Shown one piece after another: positions 8,046 to 15,921 of a stretch of DNA of 64,000 nucleotides; positions within the stretch are counted from its first letter, which is position 1; each line of letters opens with the position of its first letter. Below the pieces are notes generated by a model. It was given only the letters and a program-made list of their open reading frames with translations. It did no database searches and was not told where the DNA came from. The translations under genes and the position numbers were made by a program. Origin of the DNA: an uncultured Actinomycetes bacterium (GTDB lineage Bacteria; Actinomycetota; Thermoleophilia; UBA2241); assembly GCA_963725665.1 (NCBI GenBank), contig CAVRZA010000001.1:384001-448000 (forward strand), written 5' to 3'.

Positions 8046-8090
8046 TTGAAAAGGCGACGGACGGTCAGTACTGTACGCCCACCTAGGTGG
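8046..8090 (+). promoter_or_regulatory. Sigma70 promoter with a palindromic operator (candidate TetR site) over the start site
   Basis: TTGAAA-N17-TACTGT (8046-8074), then perfect palindrome CCACCTAGGTGG (8079-8090). Confidence 0.55.
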
Positions 8091-8173
8091 ATGACTTTGG
8101 GCGACGCCGCCGCGCGCCGGCCGGATACAGGCCCGGCCGGCGCGCGGCGGCGCTGGGCGAGAACGGAGGAGCC

Positions 8174-9550
8174 ATGACAGGGACCGTGGGCGAGCACGAC
8201 GTTGGCGCTCTCGAGGAGCAGTTCCTCGAGCACCTCTGGCCGCCCTTCACGCAGATGCAGGGCCTCAAGCCGGTTATCATCGAGCGCGGCGAGGGCGCCG
8301 TGGTCTACGACGCGCATGGCAAGCCTTACATCGACGCGTTCGCGAGCCTCTGGACGGTCAACGTGGGGCACGGGCGGCAGGAGATCATCGACGCCGTGGC
8401 TGCCCAGGGCAAGGAGCTCGCCTGTTACCACATGTTCGGCATCGCCAACCCGCCCTCGATCAAGCTGGCGGCCAAGATCGCTGAGCATCTGCCCGGTGAC
8501 CTCAACCACGTCTTCCTCACCCTGGGCGGCGGCGAGGCGGTGGAGACGGCCCTCAAGATCGCGCGCCAGTACTGGCGCAACAGGGGCAAGGGCGGCAAGT
8601 ACATGGTCTTCTACCGCGACCGCGCCTACCACGGCACGACCTTCGGCGTGACGAGCGCGCAGGGTCTGCCGCTCAACCGGCACAAGTTCGAGCCGCTGCT
8701 GCCCGGCTTCGTCAAGCTGGGCGCCCCGTACTGCTACCGCTGCGCCTGGGGCAAGACCTACGGCGAGTGCGCCATCGAGTGCGCAAAGGCCGTGGAGCAG
8801 GAGATTTCCTTCTACGGCGAGGAGAACGTCGGCACGCTACTGGGCGAGACGATGATCGGCACCGGCGGCGTCATCCCGCCGCCCCCGGAGTACTGGCCCC
8901 TGGTGCGCGAGATCTGCGACGCGCACGAGCTGCTGGTCATCAACGACGAGGTCATCACCGGGTTCGGGCGCGGCGGCACCTGGTTCGCATGCACGCAGTT
9001 CGGGAGCAAGCCCGACATGGTGACGATGGCCAAGGGTCTCTCGTCGGGTTACCTCCCTCTCGGCGCCGTCGGGGCCAGCGAAGGGGTGTTCGAGGCCTTC
9101 TTGGGCGAGCCCCTCGAGTTGAAGCAGTTCATGAGCGGTGCCACCTACCAGGGCCACCCGCTCTGCTCCGCCGCCGGCCTCGCCAACCTCGAGATCATCG
9201 AGCGCGAGAACCTGGTCGATCGCTGCCGCGAGCTGGGTCCGTACATGCAGGAGGGGCTGCGCAGCCTGCTCTCGCACGCCATCGTCGGCGATGTGCGCGG
9301 CATCGGCCTCGTGGCTGGCATCGAGTACGTGCAGGACAAGCAGACCAAGGAGTGGTTCCCGCCGGCGATCGGTGCCGCCGGCAAGGTGTTCGCCGAGGCC
9401 TTCCGGCGGGGCGTCTTCGTGCGCCTCCTGGGCGGCGGCAATGTGCACGCTATCGCGCCGCCGTTCATCATCAGTAAGGAGCAGATCGACACCATCGTGA
9501 GCGTGCTCGACGAGTCGATCGGCGTGGTCGAGATGGAGCTGGGCTACTAG
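8174..9550 (+). CDS. Class III PLP-dependent aminotransferase (omega-amine transaminase)
   Basis: GGEAVETALK, AYHG, DEVITGFGR, MAKGLSSGY (PLP lysine); GGAGG RBS. Confidence 0.92.
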   Translation: MTGTVGEHDVGALEEQFLEHLWPPFTQMQGLKPVIIERGEGAVVYDAHGKPYIDAFASLWTVNVGHGRQEIIDAVAAQGKELACYHMFGIANPPSIKLAAKIAEHLPGDLNHVFLTLGGGEAVETALKIARQYWRNRGKGGKYMVFYRDRAYHGTTFGVTSAQGLPLNRHKFEPLLPGFVKLGAPYCYRCAWGKTYGECAIECAKAVEQEISFYGEENVGTLLGETMIGTGGVIPPPPEYWPLVREICDAHELLVINDEVITGFGRGGTWFACTQFGSKPDMVTMAKGLSSGYLPLGAVGASEGVFEAFLGEPLELKQFMSGATYQGHPLCSAAGLANLEIIERENLVDRCRELGPYMQEGLRSLLSHAIVGDVRGIGLVAGIEYVQDKQTKEWFPPAIGAAGKVFAEAFRRGVFVRLLGGGNVHAIAPPFIISKEQIDTIVSVLDESIGVVEMELGY

Positions 9551-9608
9551 CCTCCCTGGGCGGCCAGCTGTCACTCGCGCAGCAGAGCGGAGCAAGAAAG
9601 GAAGAAGG

Positions 9609-11396
9609 ATGGTCCACGTGCTGAGGGTCGACCTGTCGACCCGCACCACTCGTGAGGAGACGCTGCCGGCAGAGCTGACGCGTGACTACATCGGCACGAA
9701 GGGGATCGGCAGCCACCTGCTGCTGCAGGAGGTGGACCCCGGCATCGACCCGCTCGGTCCCGACGCCAAGCTCATCTTCTCGGCCGGCCCCCTCTCGGGG
9801 TCGACCATGCCCGGTACGGACCGCTACGCAGTCTACTTCCTTTCGCCTCTTACGGGAGGTTACGGCGAGGCCTACTCGGGCGGTAAGGTGGCGACGCAGT
9901 TCGCCCGCACCGGCTTCCGTATGGTGGTACTCGAAGGGAAGGCGTCCTCTCCGGTCTTCATCGAGGTCTCCGACGAGAAGGTCGCGATCCACCCGGCGGA
10001 CGATCTCTGGGGACTCGACTGCTACGAGGCCGAGGACCGACTCCTCGAGCGCGTCGGCGTGAGGAACGCCCAGGCCTGCGTGATCGGACCCGCCGGCGAG
10101 AAGCTCGTGCGCTTCGCCTGCATCCAGAACAACCGCACGCACAGCCTCGGGCGCGGCGGATGCGGCGCCGTCATGGGCTCCAAGAACGTCAAGGGGCTCG
10201 TGTTCCACGGCTCGACGAGGCCGGAGGTGGCGCGCCCCGACGAGCTCAAGGCCCTGGTCAAGGAGATGATCGCCAACGGCAAGGACCACCCCAGCGTCGC
10301 GGCCTACAACGCCAAGGGCACGGTGCAGATGGTGCGCCTCACCAACGGGGTCTCGATGTTCCCCACCCGCTACTGGACCAAGGGGCATCTCGACGACTTC
10401 GAGCCGCTCTCAGCCGAGACGATGATGGAGAAGTACAAGGTCGGCAACACGACGTGTCCGCCCTGCTTCATCGCCTGCGGGCACGTCTGCCGGGTGCCAG
10501 ACGGCGAGCTCGCCGGCCTCGAGATCGACGGACCGGAGTACGAGACCATCTTCGCCTTCGGAGGCCTTTGCGAGGTCGTCGACTTCGGCTACGTCATGCT
10601 CTACAACGACATCTGCGATCGCCAGGGCGTCGACACGATGAGCGCCGGCAACCTGTGCGGGCTGGCCATCGAGGCGTCGCGGCGCGGGCTCATCGACGAG
10701 GAGCTCGACTTCGGCGACGCCAAAGGCGTGCAGCGCTTCCTCGAGAAGATGTGCCGCCGCGAGGGCGTCGGCGACCTGTTCGCGGAGGGCATCCTGGCGG
10801 TCCAGAAGGAGCTCGGCCTCGAAAGCGTGGCCGTGCACGTCAAGGGCATGGAGCCGGCGGGCTACGACCCGCGCCGCTCGCGGGGCATGGGCTTAGGCTA
10901 CGTCGTCTCGGCCCGCGGCGCCTGTCACGCGCGGGCGACGTTCATGAAGCCCGAGCTGGCCGGCCTCATCGACATCAACACCACCGTCGGCAAGGGGGCC
11001 ATGTACGTCGACTACGAGGACCGCATGGCGATCCTCGACTGCATGGTCTTCTGCCGCTTCTACCGCGACCTGCTCGAGTGGGAGTTCCTCGCGCGGATCG
11101 TCAACGCCGCGGTGGGCACCGACTACTCCGTCGAGGAGCTGAGAGCCGTCGCCAACCGCATCGTCACCGAGACACACCGCTTCAACGAGCTGCGCGGCAT
11201 CGGTGGGGAGTCAGAGCACCTGCCGGCGTGGATCATCGACAACCCTATCGAGCACCACGACGGTGAGAAGCTGACCATCAGCGAGGAGCAGATGGAGACG
11301 ATGCGCCGCGATTACTATGCGGCGCGCGGCTGGGGCGTCCCCGGGGCTGAGACCCGGGATCGATCGGGCCCGAGAGGGGAGGCGAGACGAGCATGA
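9609..11396 (+). CDS. aor: Aldehyde:ferredoxin oxidoreductase family protein (tungstopterin)
   Basis: SPLTG, IGPAGE, GRGGCGAVMGSKNVK, CxxCxxxC, GPEYET, DTMS, YDPR, RGACH. Confidence 0.92.
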   Translation: MVHVLRVDLSTRTTREETLPAELTRDYIGTKGIGSHLLLQEVDPGIDPLGPDAKLIFSAGPLSGSTMPGTDRYAVYFLSPLTGGYGEAYSGGKVATQFARTGFRMVVLEGKASSPVFIEVSDEKVAIHPADDLWGLDCYEAEDRLLERVGVRNAQACVIGPAGEKLVRFACIQNNRTHSLGRGGCGAVMGSKNVKGLVFHGSTRPEVARPDELKALVKEMIANGKDHPSVAAYNAKGTVQMVRLTNGVSMFPTRYWTKGHLDDFEPLSAETMMEKYKVGNTTCPPCFIACGHVCRVPDGELAGLEIDGPEYETIFAFGGLCEVVDFGYVMLYNDICDRQGVDTMSAGNLCGLAIEASRRGLIDEELDFGDAKGVQRFLEKMCRREGVGDLFAEGILAVQKELGLESVAVHVKGMEPAGYDPRRSRGMGLGYVVSARGACHARATFMKPELAGLIDINTTVGKGAMYVDYEDRMAILDCMVFCRFYRDLLEWEFLARIVNAAVGTDYSVEELRAVANRIVTETHRFNELRGIGGESEHLPAWIIDNPIEHHDGEKLTISEEQMETMRRDYYAARGWGVPGAETRDRSGPRGEARRA

Positions 11397-12760
11397 GCGG
11401 CGGAACCGGCGGCGGCCTCGTCCGGCTCGCGCTGCCCTACGGGCGCGGCGAGCAGCCGGTCGCCCTGCTCGATGACCGGCTGCTCGCCGTCGTGACGGGG
11501 GTCGCCGGCGCGGGCCAGGACGGCCACGCGGCCGGTGCACCCGACGAGCGCGCCGAGGTCGCTCGCGCGTTGCGCGAGCCGCTCGGCGCGCCGCCGCTCG
11601 CGACGCTGGCTCGGGAGGCGGCGTCAGCCGCCATCGTCGTGAGCGACGTCACGCGGCCCTGTCCGACCGCCCGCTTCTTGCCCGCTCTGCTCGATGAGCT
11701 CGCCGCCGTCGGCGACGAGGCGATCACGGTCATCTTCGCGCTCGGCAGCCATCGGCCGCACACGCGAGAAGAGCAGGAGGAGCTGGTCGGGCGCGAAGTG
11801 CTCGCGCGGGCGCGCGTGCTCGACCTCGACGCCGGCGATTGCACCTACGTGGGCACGACGAGCAGGGGCACGCGCGTGGAGGTCTTCCGTCCGTTCTTGG
11901 AGGCGGAGTTCAAGATCTGCACAGGCAACGTGGAATACCACTACTTCGCCGGCTTCAGCGGCGGGGTCAAAGCGGTCGTGCCCGGTCTCTGCTCGCGGGC
12001 GACGATCCAGGCGAACCACAGCATGATGCTCGCGCCCGCCGCGCGTGCCGGCGTCATCGAGGGCAATCCCGTGCGCGAGGACATCGACGAAGCCGGGGAG
12101 CTTCTCGGCGTCGGCTTTGCGTTCAACGTCGTCCTCGACGGGCGCAAGCGCATCGTGCGCGCCTTCGCCGGGCACCCGACCACGGCCTTCCGGGCCGCCG
12201 CCGCCTTCTACGACGAGCGCTTTGGCGTCACTGTGCCGGCGGCCGCCGACGTCGTGCTCGCCTCTCCCGGCGGCCGCCCCAAGGATATCAACCTCTACCA
12301 GGCGCAGAAGACCCTCGACAACGTGCGCGGCGCGGTGCGCAACGGCGGCGCCGTCATCCTGGTCGCCGAGTGCCCCGAGGGCTTCGGCGAGGCGACGTTC
12401 GAGCGCTGGATGCGCGAGATGACAACGCCGCAGGCGCTGGTCGAGCGCATCCAGCGCGAGTTCGTGCTGGGAGGCCACAAGGCGGCCGCCATCGCCGGCC
12501 TCTTGCGCACCGTCGACGTGTACCTCGTGTCGGCCTTCCCCGACGAGACGGTACGCCGGATGGGAATGACGCCGATGCCCCGCGCGCAGGCGGCGGTCGA
12601 GGCTGCGGCGGCCCGCTACGGGCCCGCCGCCACTTTCCTCGTCGTGCCGGACGGTACCAGGGTGAGCACCAGCGCCCAGGCGGGCAAGATACCGGCCCGG
12701 GCCTCGTCTTCTCCCGGCGCTGCCGCCTCCGAGTCGGTCGAGGCGGGAGCGGGGTCGTAG
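11393..12760 (+). CDS. larA: Nickel-pincer-dependent lactate racemase family protein
   Basis: VSDVTRP, ALGSHR, HYFAGFSGGVK, DINLYQAQK, AECPEG. Confidence 0.9.
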   Translation: MSGGTGGGLVRLALPYGRGEQPVALLDDRLLAVVTGVAGAGQDGHAAGAPDERAEVARALREPLGAPPLATLAREAASAAIVVSDVTRPCPTARFLPALLDELAAVGDEAITVIFALGSHRPHTREEQEELVGREVLARARVLDLDAGDCTYVGTTSRGTRVEVFRPFLEAEFKICTGNVEYHYFAGFSGGVKAVVPGLCSRATIQANHSMMLAPAARAGVIEGNPVREDIDEAGELLGVGFAFNVVLDGRKRIVRAFAGHPTTAFRAAAAFYDERFGVTVPAAADVVLASPGGRPKDINLYQAQKTLDNVRGAVRNGGAVILVAECPEGFGEATFERWMREMTTPQALVERIQREFVLGGHKAAAIAGLLRTVDVYLVSAFPDETVRRMGMTPMPRAQAAVEAAAARYGPAATFLVVPDGTRVSTSAQAGKIPARASSSPGAAASESVEAGAGS

Positions 12761-12889: not shown

Positions 12890-13591
12890 ATGGGAGATGA
12901 GCCTCAAACGATGACGGCGATCAGAAAGTTGGAGAGGGAGCGCGGCGTCAGGGTGCCGTTCGACGACCCGTTCACCAGTCTGCCCGAGACGGCGCAGAGG
13001 ATCCTCGCCGCCGCCTCGAAGCTGCTGGCGAAGCGCGGCTACGAGGCGGTGACGCTCGAGAACGTGGCCCGCGAGGCCGGCGTCAACAAGGCGACCATCC
13101 GCTACAATTTCGGCAACAAGGCCGGGCTGATGACCGCCATCGTCGACGGGCTCATCCACGACGAGTGCCTGCGCATGGCCGCCGACCTCGACACGGTCGA
13201 CCAGGACGACCGGTTGGCCGCGGCGATGGAGGGGATCGGCGGCATGATCGTGAGCGCCGACTCCTTCAAGGGCTTCTTCGAGGTGCTGCCGCACGCCTTC
13301 CGCGACGAGGACTTGCGGGTGCGCCTCTTCGCCCTCTATCGCTGGTGGTACGGGTTGAACCTCAAGTGGCTGGGCTTGCCCGACGAGATCGACGAGGACA
13401 CCAACTACTACATCGTAGGGTTGGCGGAGCTCATCGCCGCCATCCCCGACGGACTCTCGATCCAGGCAGGCCTCGACCCGGGACATTTCGACGTCGCGCG
13501 CCCTCTGGCGGCTCTCGAGCTCCTGCTGCGCAACTCGATGAAGGAGCTGCGAGCCCTGGCCGAGGAGCGCGGCGGACGATCGCCACGGTGA
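12890..13591 (+). CDS. TetR/AcrR family regulator
   Basis: HTH: GYEAVTLENVAREAGVNKATIRYNFGNKAGL. Confidence 0.9.
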   Translation: MGDEPQTMTAIRKLERERGVRVPFDDPFTSLPETAQRILAAASKLLAKRGYEAVTLENVAREAGVNKATIRYNFGNKAGLMTAIVDGLIHDECLRMAADLDTVDQDDRLAAAMEGIGGMIVSADSFKGFFEVLPHAFRDEDLRVRLFALYRWWYGLNLKWLGLPDEIDEDTNYYIVGLAELIAAIPDGLSIQAGLDPGHFDVARPLAALELLLRNSMKELRALAEERGGRSPR

Positions 13592-13642
13592 CCGGCGAGC
13601 CTCATCACCGCCCACCCTTCCCACCGCGCAAGGAGGTGCCGA

Positions 13643-15130
13643 GTGAGACGAAACCAACACGCCGGGCGCAGGGGTAGCGCCGGCGCGAGCCTCAACCTGC
13701 TGAGCGACGACGACCTCCACGACATCCACCTCGCCACGCTCGAGGTGTTGGGGAGGACCGGCGTCTGGGTGGAGGATGAGGATGCGCGTCGCGTCTTCGC
13801 CAGCGCCGGGGCAGACGTCGACGAGGCCACCGGGGTGGTGAAGATCCCCTCCTACGTGGTGGAGGAGGCGGTACGCTCGGCGCCGCCGAAGTTCGTCGCC
13901 GCCGGGCGCGACCCCGCCAGGGATTTCGTCCTCGAGGCCGACCGCGTCGGCTTCACCAACTTCGGCGAGGGCGTGAAGCTCGTCGACCCGTTCACCGGGG
14001 AGCTGCGCCTGCCGGTCAAACGGGACGTGGCCGACACGGCCCGCGTCGTCGACTACCTCTCTGACGTCGACGTCTACGAGCGGGCCATCACGGCCGAGGA
14101 TGTCCCTCCTGAGAGCGCGCCGCTCCACCAGGCCGAGGCCTGGATGAGCAACACCACGAAGCCGGGCTTCATGGGCCCCATGAACGGCTACTTGCTTGAA
14201 CGGATCGCACAGATGGCCGAGGCCGTGCAGGGAGGCCCCGAGAAGCTACGTCGACGCCCGCTCGTCACCTTCGTGACGTGCCCCGTGAGCCCCTTGAAGC
14301 TCATCCGGGACTGCTGCGAGATCATCATGGGCGCGGCCAGACGTGGTCTCGGGGTGAACATCCTCTCGATGGCCATGGCAGGCGGATCCTCACCGGTCAC
14401 CCTGGCGGGGACCCTCGTCACCCACAACGCCGAGGTCCTGAGCGGCATCACGCTCAACCAGCTCACGAAGAAAGGGTCGCCGGTCGTCTACGGCAGCTCC
14501 ACCACGGCGATGGACCTGCGTTTCGCGGCCGCCTCGGTGGGCTCGCCGGAGTGCGCGCTGATCGGCGCCGCCGTCGCCCAACTGGCGCGCTTCTACCTGC
14601 TCCCCAGCTGGGTCGCCGGTGCGTAGGGGGACACCAAAGTGGTCGATGCCCAGAGCGGGCACGAGAAGACCCTGACCGCCTTGCTGCCAGCGTTGGCAGG
14701 CGCCAACCTGATCTACGGTCTGGGGATGATCGAGTCGGGCATGACCTTCGATTTCGGGCAGCTCGTCATGGACAACGAGTTCGCGCGCATGATCAAGTTC
14801 GCCGTCGGCGGCATCCCGGTGAACGACGAGACGCTGGCTGTGGACGTCATCGCGGAGGTGGGCGCCTTTGGGGACTTCCTCGGCCACGAGCACACGATGA
14901 AGCACATGCGCGAGCAGTCCCCGTCGGCGCTCCTCGACCGGCGCGTGCGCGAGGACTGGGAGGCCTCGGGGTCGACGACCCTCTACGACCGGGCGACCGC
15001 CAAGGCGCGTGAGATCCTCGAAAGCTATCGGCCCGAGCCGCTGCCCGAGAGCGTGGCCGCCGAGATGCGCGACATCATCGCCGACGCCGAGAAGGACCTG
15101 GGCGTGACGACTACCGTGGGGAGGGTGTGA
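13643..15130 (+). CDS. mttB: Trimethylamine:corrinoid methyltransferase MttB, 495 aa, with in-frame amber codon (predicted pyrrolysine) at 14624-14626
   Basis: ORFs 13643-14626 and 14639-15130 share a frame and are separated by a single TAG (SWVAGA-*-GDTKVVDAQSGHEKT). MttB motifs SPL, MAMAGGSSPVTLAG, HNAEVL, GANLIYG and DNE are present. Confidence 0.92.
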
Positions 15131-15780
15131 TGTCCACCGCAGACTACCAGCGCCTCTCCGAGCTCATCATCGCCGGCGAGATGGAGGGCGCCAAGGCGCT
15201 CACCGAGCAGCTCCTCGCCCAGGGTCTTCCCGGGCGCGAGGTCCTCGATGGCGGCCTTCTGCCCGGCATGGAGGTCGTGGGCGCGCGCATGAAGGCCGGC
15301 GAGTGCTTCATCCCCGAGGTGCTCCTCTCTGCACGCACCATGCAGGGCTGCCTGGACCTCATCAAGCCCCACCTGGCGGCCGGCGACTCAGGCTCGGCCG
15401 GTACGGTGCTCATCGGCACCGTCGAGGGCGACGTGCACGACATCGGCAAGAACCTAGTCGCCATGCTGCTCGAGGGGGCCGGCTTCTCGGTCGTCAACTT
15501 GGGGGCCCAGATCAGCCCCGCCGCCTTCCTTGCCGCCGTTCGCGAGCACTCACCGCAGATCCTCGGCATGAGCGGTCTTCTGACCACCACCATCCCCAAG
15601 ATGGCCGACACCATCAAGCTGCTCAAGGACGAGGGCTTACGAGACGCCGTCAAGGTGATGGTCGGCGGCGCCCCGGTCACGCAGCGCTTCGCCGATGAGA
15701 TCGGCGCCGACGCCTACGGCGCCAACGCCGCCGCCGCCGTGGAGAAGGCCAAGGCGTTGCTGGGGACCCAGAGGGCGTAG
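15130..15780 (+). CDS. mttC: Cognate corrinoid (B12-binding) protein
   Basis: FIPEVLLSA cap domain, GTVEGDVHDIGKN (DxHxxG), SGLLTTT, VGGAPV. Confidence 0.92.
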   Translation: MSTADYQRLSELIIAGEMEGAKALTEQLLAQGLPGREVLDGGLLPGMEVVGARMKAGECFIPEVLLSARTMQGCLDLIKPHLAAGDSGSAGTVLIGTVEGDVHDIGKNLVAMLLEGAGFSVVNLGAQISPAAFLAAVREHSPQILGMSGLLTTTIPKMADTIKLLKDEGLRDAVKVMVGGAPVTQRFADEIGADAYGANAAAAVEKAKALLGTQRA

Positions 15781-15814
15781 GCGGGGGGCTCAGCCCCGGG
15801 AGCTTGCGAGGCGA

Positions 15815-15862
15815 CGGGGCGGGGGCGCTTCTCCCGCGCGCGGGAGAAGCGCCCCCGCCCCG
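15815..15862. terminator. Perfect 48-bp palindrome after mttC (terminator-like hairpin)
   Basis: CGGGGCGGGGGCGCTTCTCCCGCG followed directly by its exact reverse complement; no U-tract. Confidence 0.65.
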
Positions 15863-15921
15863 CTCCGTGCCCCTCGCCGGCGGCTCTCACTCCTTGCCCT
15901 CCACCCGGTATGCTGGTCGGC

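Follow-up and report, generated by a model that had tools for sequence, protein, structure and literature searches.

A pyrrolysine-type trimethylamine methyltransferase gene with an in-frame UAG codon in a bacterium of the class Thermoleophilia

The trimethylamine (TMA) methyltransferase MttB and the corrinoid protein MttC form a textbook pair, the complex of which has been solved. Here we describe a bacterial gene of the mttB type with an in-frame UAG, the codon that would specify pyrrolysine (Pyl), together with the corrinoid protein gene that follows it. Both genes lie in a stretch of 64,000 nt (hereafter the window; 69% GC), which comprises positions 384001-448000 of contig CAVRZA010000001.1 (C1) from assembly GCA_963725665.1. 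This assembly is a draft metagenome-assembled genome (MAG) of 3.73 Mb in 12 contigs, with a completeness of 97.5% and an estimated contamination of 5.04%. The closest described system, MttB-MttC of Methanosarcina barkeri (7XCL, 7XCM and 7XCN; PMC9842639), shares with this locus an alignment over the full length of MttB, a UAG at the position of Pyl334, the residues Gly110, Met249 and Tyr364, an adjacent corrinoid protein with a DxHxxG motif, and a PYLIS_3 region after the UAG. The present system differs from it in having a bacterial host, a pyrrolysyl-tRNA synthetase split into PylSc and PylSn, and Glu in place of Thr111. Moreover, the methyl acceptor is here presumably tetrahydrofolate, reached via an MtgA-like enzyme, and not coenzyme M, reached via MtbA.

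Bacterial Pyl systems have been described in Bacillota and Deltaproteobacteria, such as Desulfitobacterium, Acetohalobium arabaticum and Bilophila (PMC3941956, PMC8318568). These likewise combine split PylSc and PylSn, pylBCD and a compact tRNA-Pyl with Pyl-containing methylamine methyltransferases, and they retain TAG as a stop codon.

For the Actinobacteriota the trait is already in print (PMC9630628, PMC10805028). In the supplement of Guo et al. (2022; PMC9630628), PylSc is listed for 'Thermoleophilia_bacterium' and 'Actinobacteria_bacterium_ADurb.BinA094', and in that table the PylSn column is blank for both; in contrast, PylSn was found in the present genome and in 75 of 81 genomes of its family (the family sample comprised 79 or 81 genomes, depending on the search). 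For a thawing permafrost mire, Ellenbogen et al. (2023; PMC10805028) reported expression of Pyl-type mttB and mtbB by Actinobacteriota MAGs; they recognised Pyl genes from their being cut short at the amber codon, and their main text makes no mention of pylS, pylT or pylB. These records and the present genome have in common the phylum (in one record also the class) and the genes, and the loci nearest to PylSc of this genome likewise come from peat and wetland habitats. Our literature search found no account of the family-wide distribution, the split gene layout, the number of paralogues or the TAG usage reported below, although supplements outside that search may hold more.

The mttB gene and its in-frame TAG

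The following features, given in window coordinates, make up the two-gene unit.

13630-13636, + strand: Shine-Dalgarno sequence AAGGAGG, identified by direct reading of the sequence, 6 nt before the GTG start at 13643
13643-15130, + strand: mttB, predicted Pyl-type trimethylamine:corrinoid methyltransferase; 495 codons plus TGA (15128-15130); matches TIGR02369 and Pfam MTTB
14624-14626, + strand: UAG predicted to be read as pyrrolysine, residue 328; column of X334 in 7xcl
15127-15780, + strand: mttC-like corrinoid protein gene; B12-binding_2 and B12-binding domains; GTG start, own stop TAG

In the frame 1 translation, the TAG at codon 328 is the sole stop within the 495-codon frame, where it stands in the context VAGA-*-GDTKVVDAQSGHEKT. 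The G+C content at third codon positions (GC3) was 0.90 upstream and 0.93 downstream of this TAG, and thus of the coding type on both sides. When read through, the protein scored 737.4 bits against the NCBIfam equivalog TIGR02369 (cut-off 525), with residues 16-483 matching profile positions 2-469 of 469, and 305.5 bits against Pfam MTTB. Its top matches among solved structures were those of M. barkeri MttB (7xcm, 416.9 bits; 7xcl, 414.3 bits), far ahead of three further structures, one of which was MtgB, a non-Pyl enzyme for glycine betaine (2qne, 233.9 bits). Residue 328 aligned with Pyl334 of 7xcl, written there as X, a column occupied by Leu in the non-Pyl MtgB, and the C-terminal 167 residues aligned with M. 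barkeri MttB through its end. The residues surrounding Pyl were conserved as well, Gly110, Met249 and Tyr364 of 7xcl corresponding to Gly108, Met243 and Tyr358. Of these, Gly110 and Tyr364 have been reported as fully conserved around Pyl, and Met249 is also located near it (PMC9842639).

The same column carried TAG in all 30 aligned loci, namely this gene and its counterparts from 29 genomes of the same family, at a protein identity of 64-72%. Because GC3 is of the coding type on both sides and the TAG column is present in 30 of 30 loci, the TAG is, by comparison of these sequences, no chance stop. In agreement with this, an in-frame TAG was present in all 150 TIGR02369 matches listed for the family (one TAG in 149, two in one), besides which there were 1134 further matches. 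The gene is thus to be regarded as a genuine Pyl-type mttB, and as a new member of an already known kind of gene.

The corrinoid protein gene overlaps mttB by 4 nt (GTGA), its GTG start being located at 15127. The encoded protein carries the cobalt-ligand motif DVHDIG (DxHxxG) at residues 102-107 and scored 158 bits against M. barkeri MttC (7xcn_M), while its best PDB match was a generic Moorella protein (1y80, 198 bits). An earlier sequence-only reading of the window had described a single TAG at codon 328 of an intact 495-residue MttB frame, had equated this codon with residue 334 of the M. barkeri enzyme, and had noted a corrinoid protein gene directly downstream. The coordinates, the codon number and the context all proved correct, and the alignment and the B12-binding domains confirmed the other two points. 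That reading had also proposed a high-GC actinobacterial host. This held true: because the submitters' titles, the PylSc gene and the family-level genome kinship agree, the host is placed within the class Thermoleophilia (Actinomycetota), an assignment that draws on those titles, one gene with its relatives and tree, and kinship at the family level.

Pyrrolysine machinery, methyl transfer and distribution

As the sequence-only reading had noted, the window itself is devoid of pyl genes. The genome-wide search that it had suggested located every one of them on a different contig, C6, at the following positions.

C6 296347-297081, + strand: pylSc, 314.6 bits (cut-off 178)
C6 298938-299198, - strand: pylSn, 119.9 bits (cut-off 51)
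C6 343702-343774, - strand: pylT, tRNA-Pyl(CUA), found with ARAGORN directly after pylD
C6 343844-344635, - strand: pylD, 211.6 bits (cut-off 150)
C6 344775-345908, - strand: pylC, 338.7 bits (cut-off 248)
C6 345979-347001, - strand: pylB, 448.3 bits (cut-off 348)

All five proteins exceeded the curated NCBIfam cut-offs and were free of internal stops. ARAGORN predicted 52 tRNAs in the genome, including this one tRNA-Pyl(CUA) and a tRNA-Sec. In the predicted fold of this tRNA, the D-loop has 5 nt and reads GGAAA, a single nucleotide separates the acceptor stem from the D stem, the anticodon stem is long (6-7 bp), the variable region is short (2-3 nt), and the T-loop UGUAACU lacks UUC. In these respects the tRNA matches the compact cloverleaf features regarded as hallmarks of tRNA-Pyl (PMC3941956); for a further criterion, the absence of G18G19, the D-loop sequence is ambiguous. 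The genes pylSc and pylSn face each other at a distance of 1.9 kb, with a corrinoid-protein gene and a radical-SAM gene in between, and a comparison of coordinates showed that they are likewise 2-4 kb apart on one contig in relatives. Searches of the 20-kb pylSc locus with Rfam and ARAGORN gave no matches, pylT being located at the pylBCD locus instead.

Genes for Pyl-type methylamine methyltransferases number at least 14 in this genome, the present one included: five mttB, eight mtbB and one mtmB. All five MttB paralogues, this one included, have TAG at the Pyl column, and each of the eight mtbB matches and the mtmB match contains one TAG; about 25 further MttB paralogues are without TAG. A sixth TAG-containing MttB match has its TAG at match position 12, probably upstream of the true start. 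In 2014, Pyl-type mtbB was called almost exclusive to Methanosarcinales (PMC3941956). As for the subsequent steps, the sequence-only reading had proposed a search for RamA, MtgA and genes of the methyl-tetrahydrofolate pathway, which was successful: two RACo_C_ter (RACo/RamA-type) activase genes, three small MtgA-like Pterin_bind genes, MTHFR and AcsB were detected, the strongest pterin-binding match being FolP. One activase and one pterin-binding gene adjoin acsB, and these two may belong to the acetyl-CoA synthase cluster.

Two observations on genes near non-Pyl MttB paralogues are recorded here. At C11:277489-278214 (- strand), a RamA/RACo-type activase gene that borders a group of non-Pyl MttB genes has an in-frame TGA, which could encode selenocysteine, as the genome has a tRNA-Sec, or represent a break. 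At C2:378156-381764, a non-Pyl MttB paralogue lies in frame behind an acetyl-CoA-synthetase-like AMP-binding gene that ends with TAG.

Together, these findings suggest that the anaerobic breakdown of TMA begins with mttB and mttC, acting as a unit of two genes, with Pyl at the UAG. We assign this interpretation a probability of roughly 0.9. In such a pathway, PylB, PylC and PylD would build pyrrolysine from lysine, and the UAG at 14624-14626 would be read by tRNA-Pyl(CUA) charged by PylSc plus PylSn. Pyl328 would then bind and activate TMA, and MttB would convert it to dimethylamine, the one methyl group removed going to the corrinoid of the adjacent MttC in its Co(I) state. The remaining methyl groups could be removed by Pyl-type MtbB (eight genes) and MtmB (one gene). 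An MtgA-like pterin-binding methyltransferase would move the methyl group to tetrahydrofolate, from where it would enter the methyl branch of the Wood-Ljungdahl pathway, and a RamA/RACo-type activase would re-reduce the oxidised corrinoid; which second methyltransferase and which activase serve MttB is a deduction from gene content. That Pyl is used here for TMA demethylation had already been proposed in the sequence-only reading, and this idea is now supported by the complete pyl gene set, the tRNA-Pyl, the Pyl column and the conservation in the family.

The distribution of these genes was determined in samples of the class and the phylum (401 genomes each) and of the family. In the host's own family (f1), TIGR02369 matches with E<=1e-60 were found in 80 of 81 genomes, and in 76 of 81 the score was above the cut-off. 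PylSc (E<=1e-30) was present in 83 of the 401 genomes of the class sample: 73 of 79 from the own family, 9 of 61 from a second Pyl-positive family of this class (f4), and none from the other ten families. In the phylum sample it was detected in only 2 of 401, namely this genome and one f4 genome. The sequence-only reading had called the trait unusual for an actinobacterium; this is right for the phylum, but not within the family, where Pyl-MttB and PylSc are the norm.

A scan of species-representative genomes with the PylSc alignment yielded at least 578 relatives, of which the best 80 mostly carried titles of Thermoleophilia or Actinomycetota MAGs; the nearest named relatives stem from peat, mire, soil and sediment metagenomes. 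In a quick, unrooted maximum-likelihood tree, PylSc of this genome fell into a clade (SH-aLRT 99) with 52 rows labelled Actinomycetota, including 12 same-family genomes and this genome, and two rows with other labels. The adjoining clade was that of the Dehalococcoidales and not of the Bacillota (SH-aLRT 85, unrooted). PylSc from f4 showed only 47-51% identity to that of this genome and stood apart from the Bacillota/Chloroflexota/f1 group on a long branch, which hints at a possible second, independent acquisition of Pyl within the Thermoleophilia.

Stop codon usage and alternative interpretations

Stop usage was assessed in 2191 crude gene models of at least 120 codons that passed a GC3 filter, a set that leaves short or atypical genes outside. 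TGA ended 1229 of these models, TAG 843 (38.5%) and TAA 119, and release factor 1 (RF1) was present (489.9 bits). Because TAG ends about 38% of the genes and RF1 is present, UAG is not reassigned and has two meanings in this cell. Probably, suppression and termination compete at UAG, or expression of the pyl genes is confined to times when methylamines are at hand.

A coding-like in-frame continuation was detected behind 75 of the 843 TAG-ended models, compared with 63 of 1229 for TGA and 12 of 119 for TAA. Nine of the 75 were known methyltransferase genes, and the other 66 were read through (TAG=O) and scanned with Pfam. As many as 64 of these were rejected as Pyl proteins, being simply two adjacent genes in one frame, and one, a TrkA_N pair, was ambiguous. 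The last one, which had a Pfam domain across the TAG, was a phage-type tyrosine integrase located outside the window (C1:513249-514217, - strand). Its TAG is at residue 170, within the Phage_integrase match (residues 121-302), and it represents either a nonsense pseudogene or a further Pyl protein. A filter for a ribosome-binding site plus start codon did not separate the known Pyl genes from cases of neighbouring genes, and a looser GC3 scan for read-through genes was swamped by antisense frames. Kivenson et al. are said to have described in 2025 an archaeal code with genome-wide reassignment of UAG to Pyl (cited in PMC13695967). The present genome is not of this kind, as TAG ends 843 of the 2191 crude models, RF1 is present, and the 66 candidates outside the methyltransferases gave just the one integrase and the one ambiguous pair.

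Several points weigh against the proposed use of Pyl and TMA. We infer the actual insertion of Pyl from the genes alone, and because TAG is a common stop and RF1 is present, efficient read-through is not guaranteed. The corrinoid protein failed to reach the NCBIfam thresholds for MtgC, MtbC and pyl_corrinoid, with the generic one from Moorella as its nearest match; its designation as cognate to MttB therefore relies on gene position and not on a diagnostic score. Glu109 stands in place of Thr111 of M. barkeri MttB; the bonding at the Gly110-Thr111 peptide has been assigned to the backbone carbonyl and N-H (PMC9842639). Furthermore, the contamination estimate is 5%, with mttB and the pyl genes on separate contigs, and the pyl genes occupy three places on C6, pylBCD-pylT lying 47 kb from pylSc/pylSn, so that the usual bacterial cluster is absent. 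In Bacillota and Deltaproteobacteria the order is usually pylTScBCDSn or pylSnScBCD; clustering is nevertheless usual and not defining, and interrupted clusters have been noted (PMC3941956). Lastly, TMA as the substrate of this particular paralogue is a deduction too, and TMA need not be what this copy acts on, because the genome encodes five Pyl-type MttB paralogues.

The last point leads to the alternative that survives best, in which Pyl is inserted but the five copies have diverged in substrate, this one taking a different methylated amine instead of TMA. The coexistence of five MttB paralogues of the Pyl type with about 25 of the non-Pyl type would be in line with such divergence, as would the residues flanking Pyl, which vary among the paralogues (AGA-O-GD, AGL-O-GD and AGL-O-AD), and the many substrates of non-Pyl superfamily members that appear in the reference list of PMC10805028. 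However, this copy had the highest TIGR02369 score of the five among the matches listed (735 bits, versus 706 for C4:576249), and it has kept Gly108, Met243 and Tyr358. To our knowledge, all characterised Pyl-MttB enzymes use TMA, which also speaks against a different substrate. We therefore regard this alternative as unlikely, albeit the one to be taken most seriously.

Alternatively, the TAG could be a real stop, leaving a pseudogene or a truncated protein of 327 residues with an untranslated 3′ part. While the ordinary use of TAG as a stop and the presence of RF1 would allow for this, it is very hard to reconcile with the coding-type GC3 past the TAG, with the alignment of the C-terminal 167 residues up to the end of M. 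barkeri MttB, with the TAG column in 30 of 30 loci, and with the full Pyl machinery. A binning artefact, in which C1 and C6 would derive from different organisms and the cell with mttB might lack the machinery, would fit the contamination estimate and the location on different contigs. Nonetheless, C1 and C6 are both of ~577 kb, Pyl-MttB (76/81), PylSc (73/79) and PylSn (75/81) co-occur across the family, and TAG-bearing mttB or mtbB genes are spread over contigs C1, C2, C3 and C4, all of which makes such an artefact highly improbable. Finally, although the genome is a 12-contig metagenome-assembled draft, an error in place of a sense codon is barely credible, since the same TAG is present in the copies of 29 other genomes and in four further paralogues here, and since contigs from four public runs, which are short, derive from related strains and show 88-99% identity, cover the site (one spans 14490-14668) with no change at 14624-14626 among the differences listed, besides which there were 193 further rows. 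A look for expression evidence found no RNA sample among the public runs listed.

RNA signals, neighbouring genes and implications

Two features of the mRNA were recorded directly downstream of the UAG.

14624-14723, + strand: match to Rfam PYLIS_3 (RF02510, 'pyrrolysine insertion sequence mttB'), 68.1 bits (gathering 38), model positions 1-100 of 100
14688-14710, + strand: small conserved hairpin, core GUUGGC-AGGN-GCCAAC at 14692-14707, 68-83 nt after the U of the UAG

The PYLIS_3 match begins at the UAG, and several of its consensus pairs are non-canonical. This match largely reflects conservation of the coding sequence. As a single sequence, the region did not fold better than its shuffled versions (z = 0.04), and an alignment fold gave only modest values against column shuffles (z = -2.5 and -1.9). 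The lowest alignment-fold energies of mttB were found around the UAG, which is also the most conserved stretch of the gene; the signal for a PYLIS-like structure at this minimum was weak once columns were shuffled.

The hairpin at 14692-14707 is specific to this lineage and lies outside the Rfam PYLIS_3 consensus structure. Its positions were paired in 96% of the cells across 22 distinct sequences, with one compensatory cell only, and one paralogue has a compensating CUG...AGC in the stem. The stem contains the sole TTG-majority column among the 28 Leu columns of mttB and the sole GCA-majority column among its 33 Ala columns, both codons being fixed in the stem but rare elsewhere in the gene, and the third base of the glycine codon in the loop is free to vary. 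These features are suggestive of selection acting on the RNA. All six mtbB loci that were searched matched Rfam PYLIS_2 (61-89 bits) from the TAG onwards, whereas the Rfam search of the mtmB locus gave no match. At ~65-100 nt downstream of the UAG, the six mtbB genes share a strong hairpin (CCGCUGG-AGAN-CUGGUGG) that is flanked by outer stems; this PYLIS_2 hairpin (model positions 73-92) is located at a distance from the UAG like that of the small mttB hairpin. Because UAG ends more than one-third of the genes and yet must be Pyl in about 14, it is conceivable that recoding is helped by cis-acting signals in the mRNA and not by mere competition with RF1. We put this forward tentatively and consider it rather doubtful; if true, elements raising Pyl insertion in cis would parallel, in bacteria and for UAG, the logic of SECIS elements.

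Two further features flank the mttB-mttC unit.

12890-13591, + strand: TetR-family regulator gene (Pfam TetR_N, E 7e-15), 51 nt upstream of mttB
15815-15862, + strand: stem-loop after mttC, found by folding; 22-bp perfect GC-rich stem with a 4-nt loop

The TetR gene is a possible local regulator of mttB. Because a TetR homologue stood beside the best MttB match in only 4 of 29 relatives' loci, the link is weak; the order TetR-mttB-mttC was not conserved around these best matches, which may be other paralogues. Further upstream on the same strand (8087-12760) are genes for a class-III aminotransferase, a tungsten-type aldehyde:ferredoxin oxidoreductase and a LarA-like protein. Behind mttC, the region 15781-15880 folded with a minimum free energy of -82.2 kcal/mol (z = -5.24), and none of 200 shuffles was as stable. 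The stem-loop is a probable transcript end, or else a repeat element; the terminator scan has no entry for it because it lacks a T-tract.

The stop of mttC is itself a TAG, and the next gene, encoding a 976-residue FAD-oxidase/CCG protein (ATG 15910), follows in frame without a stop in between (15778-15910). Read-through with Pyl would join both proteins via a 43-residue linker, which is probably incidental. Nevertheless, it provides a concrete example of what a UAG suppressor costs.

Gene callers using translation table 11 split all 14 Pyl genes, and the methylamine capacity of these MAGs is therefore easily missed. The findings point to a whole family of Thermoleophilia in which the Pyl system is complete and genes for Pyl-type methyltransferases are unusually numerous. 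Methylamines feed methane production in wetlands, peat and sediments, where bacteria with Pyl enzymes compete with methylotrophic methanogens. The lineage also offers a natural test case for how a suppressor tRNA is tolerated when the codon that it suppresses ends 38% of the genes.

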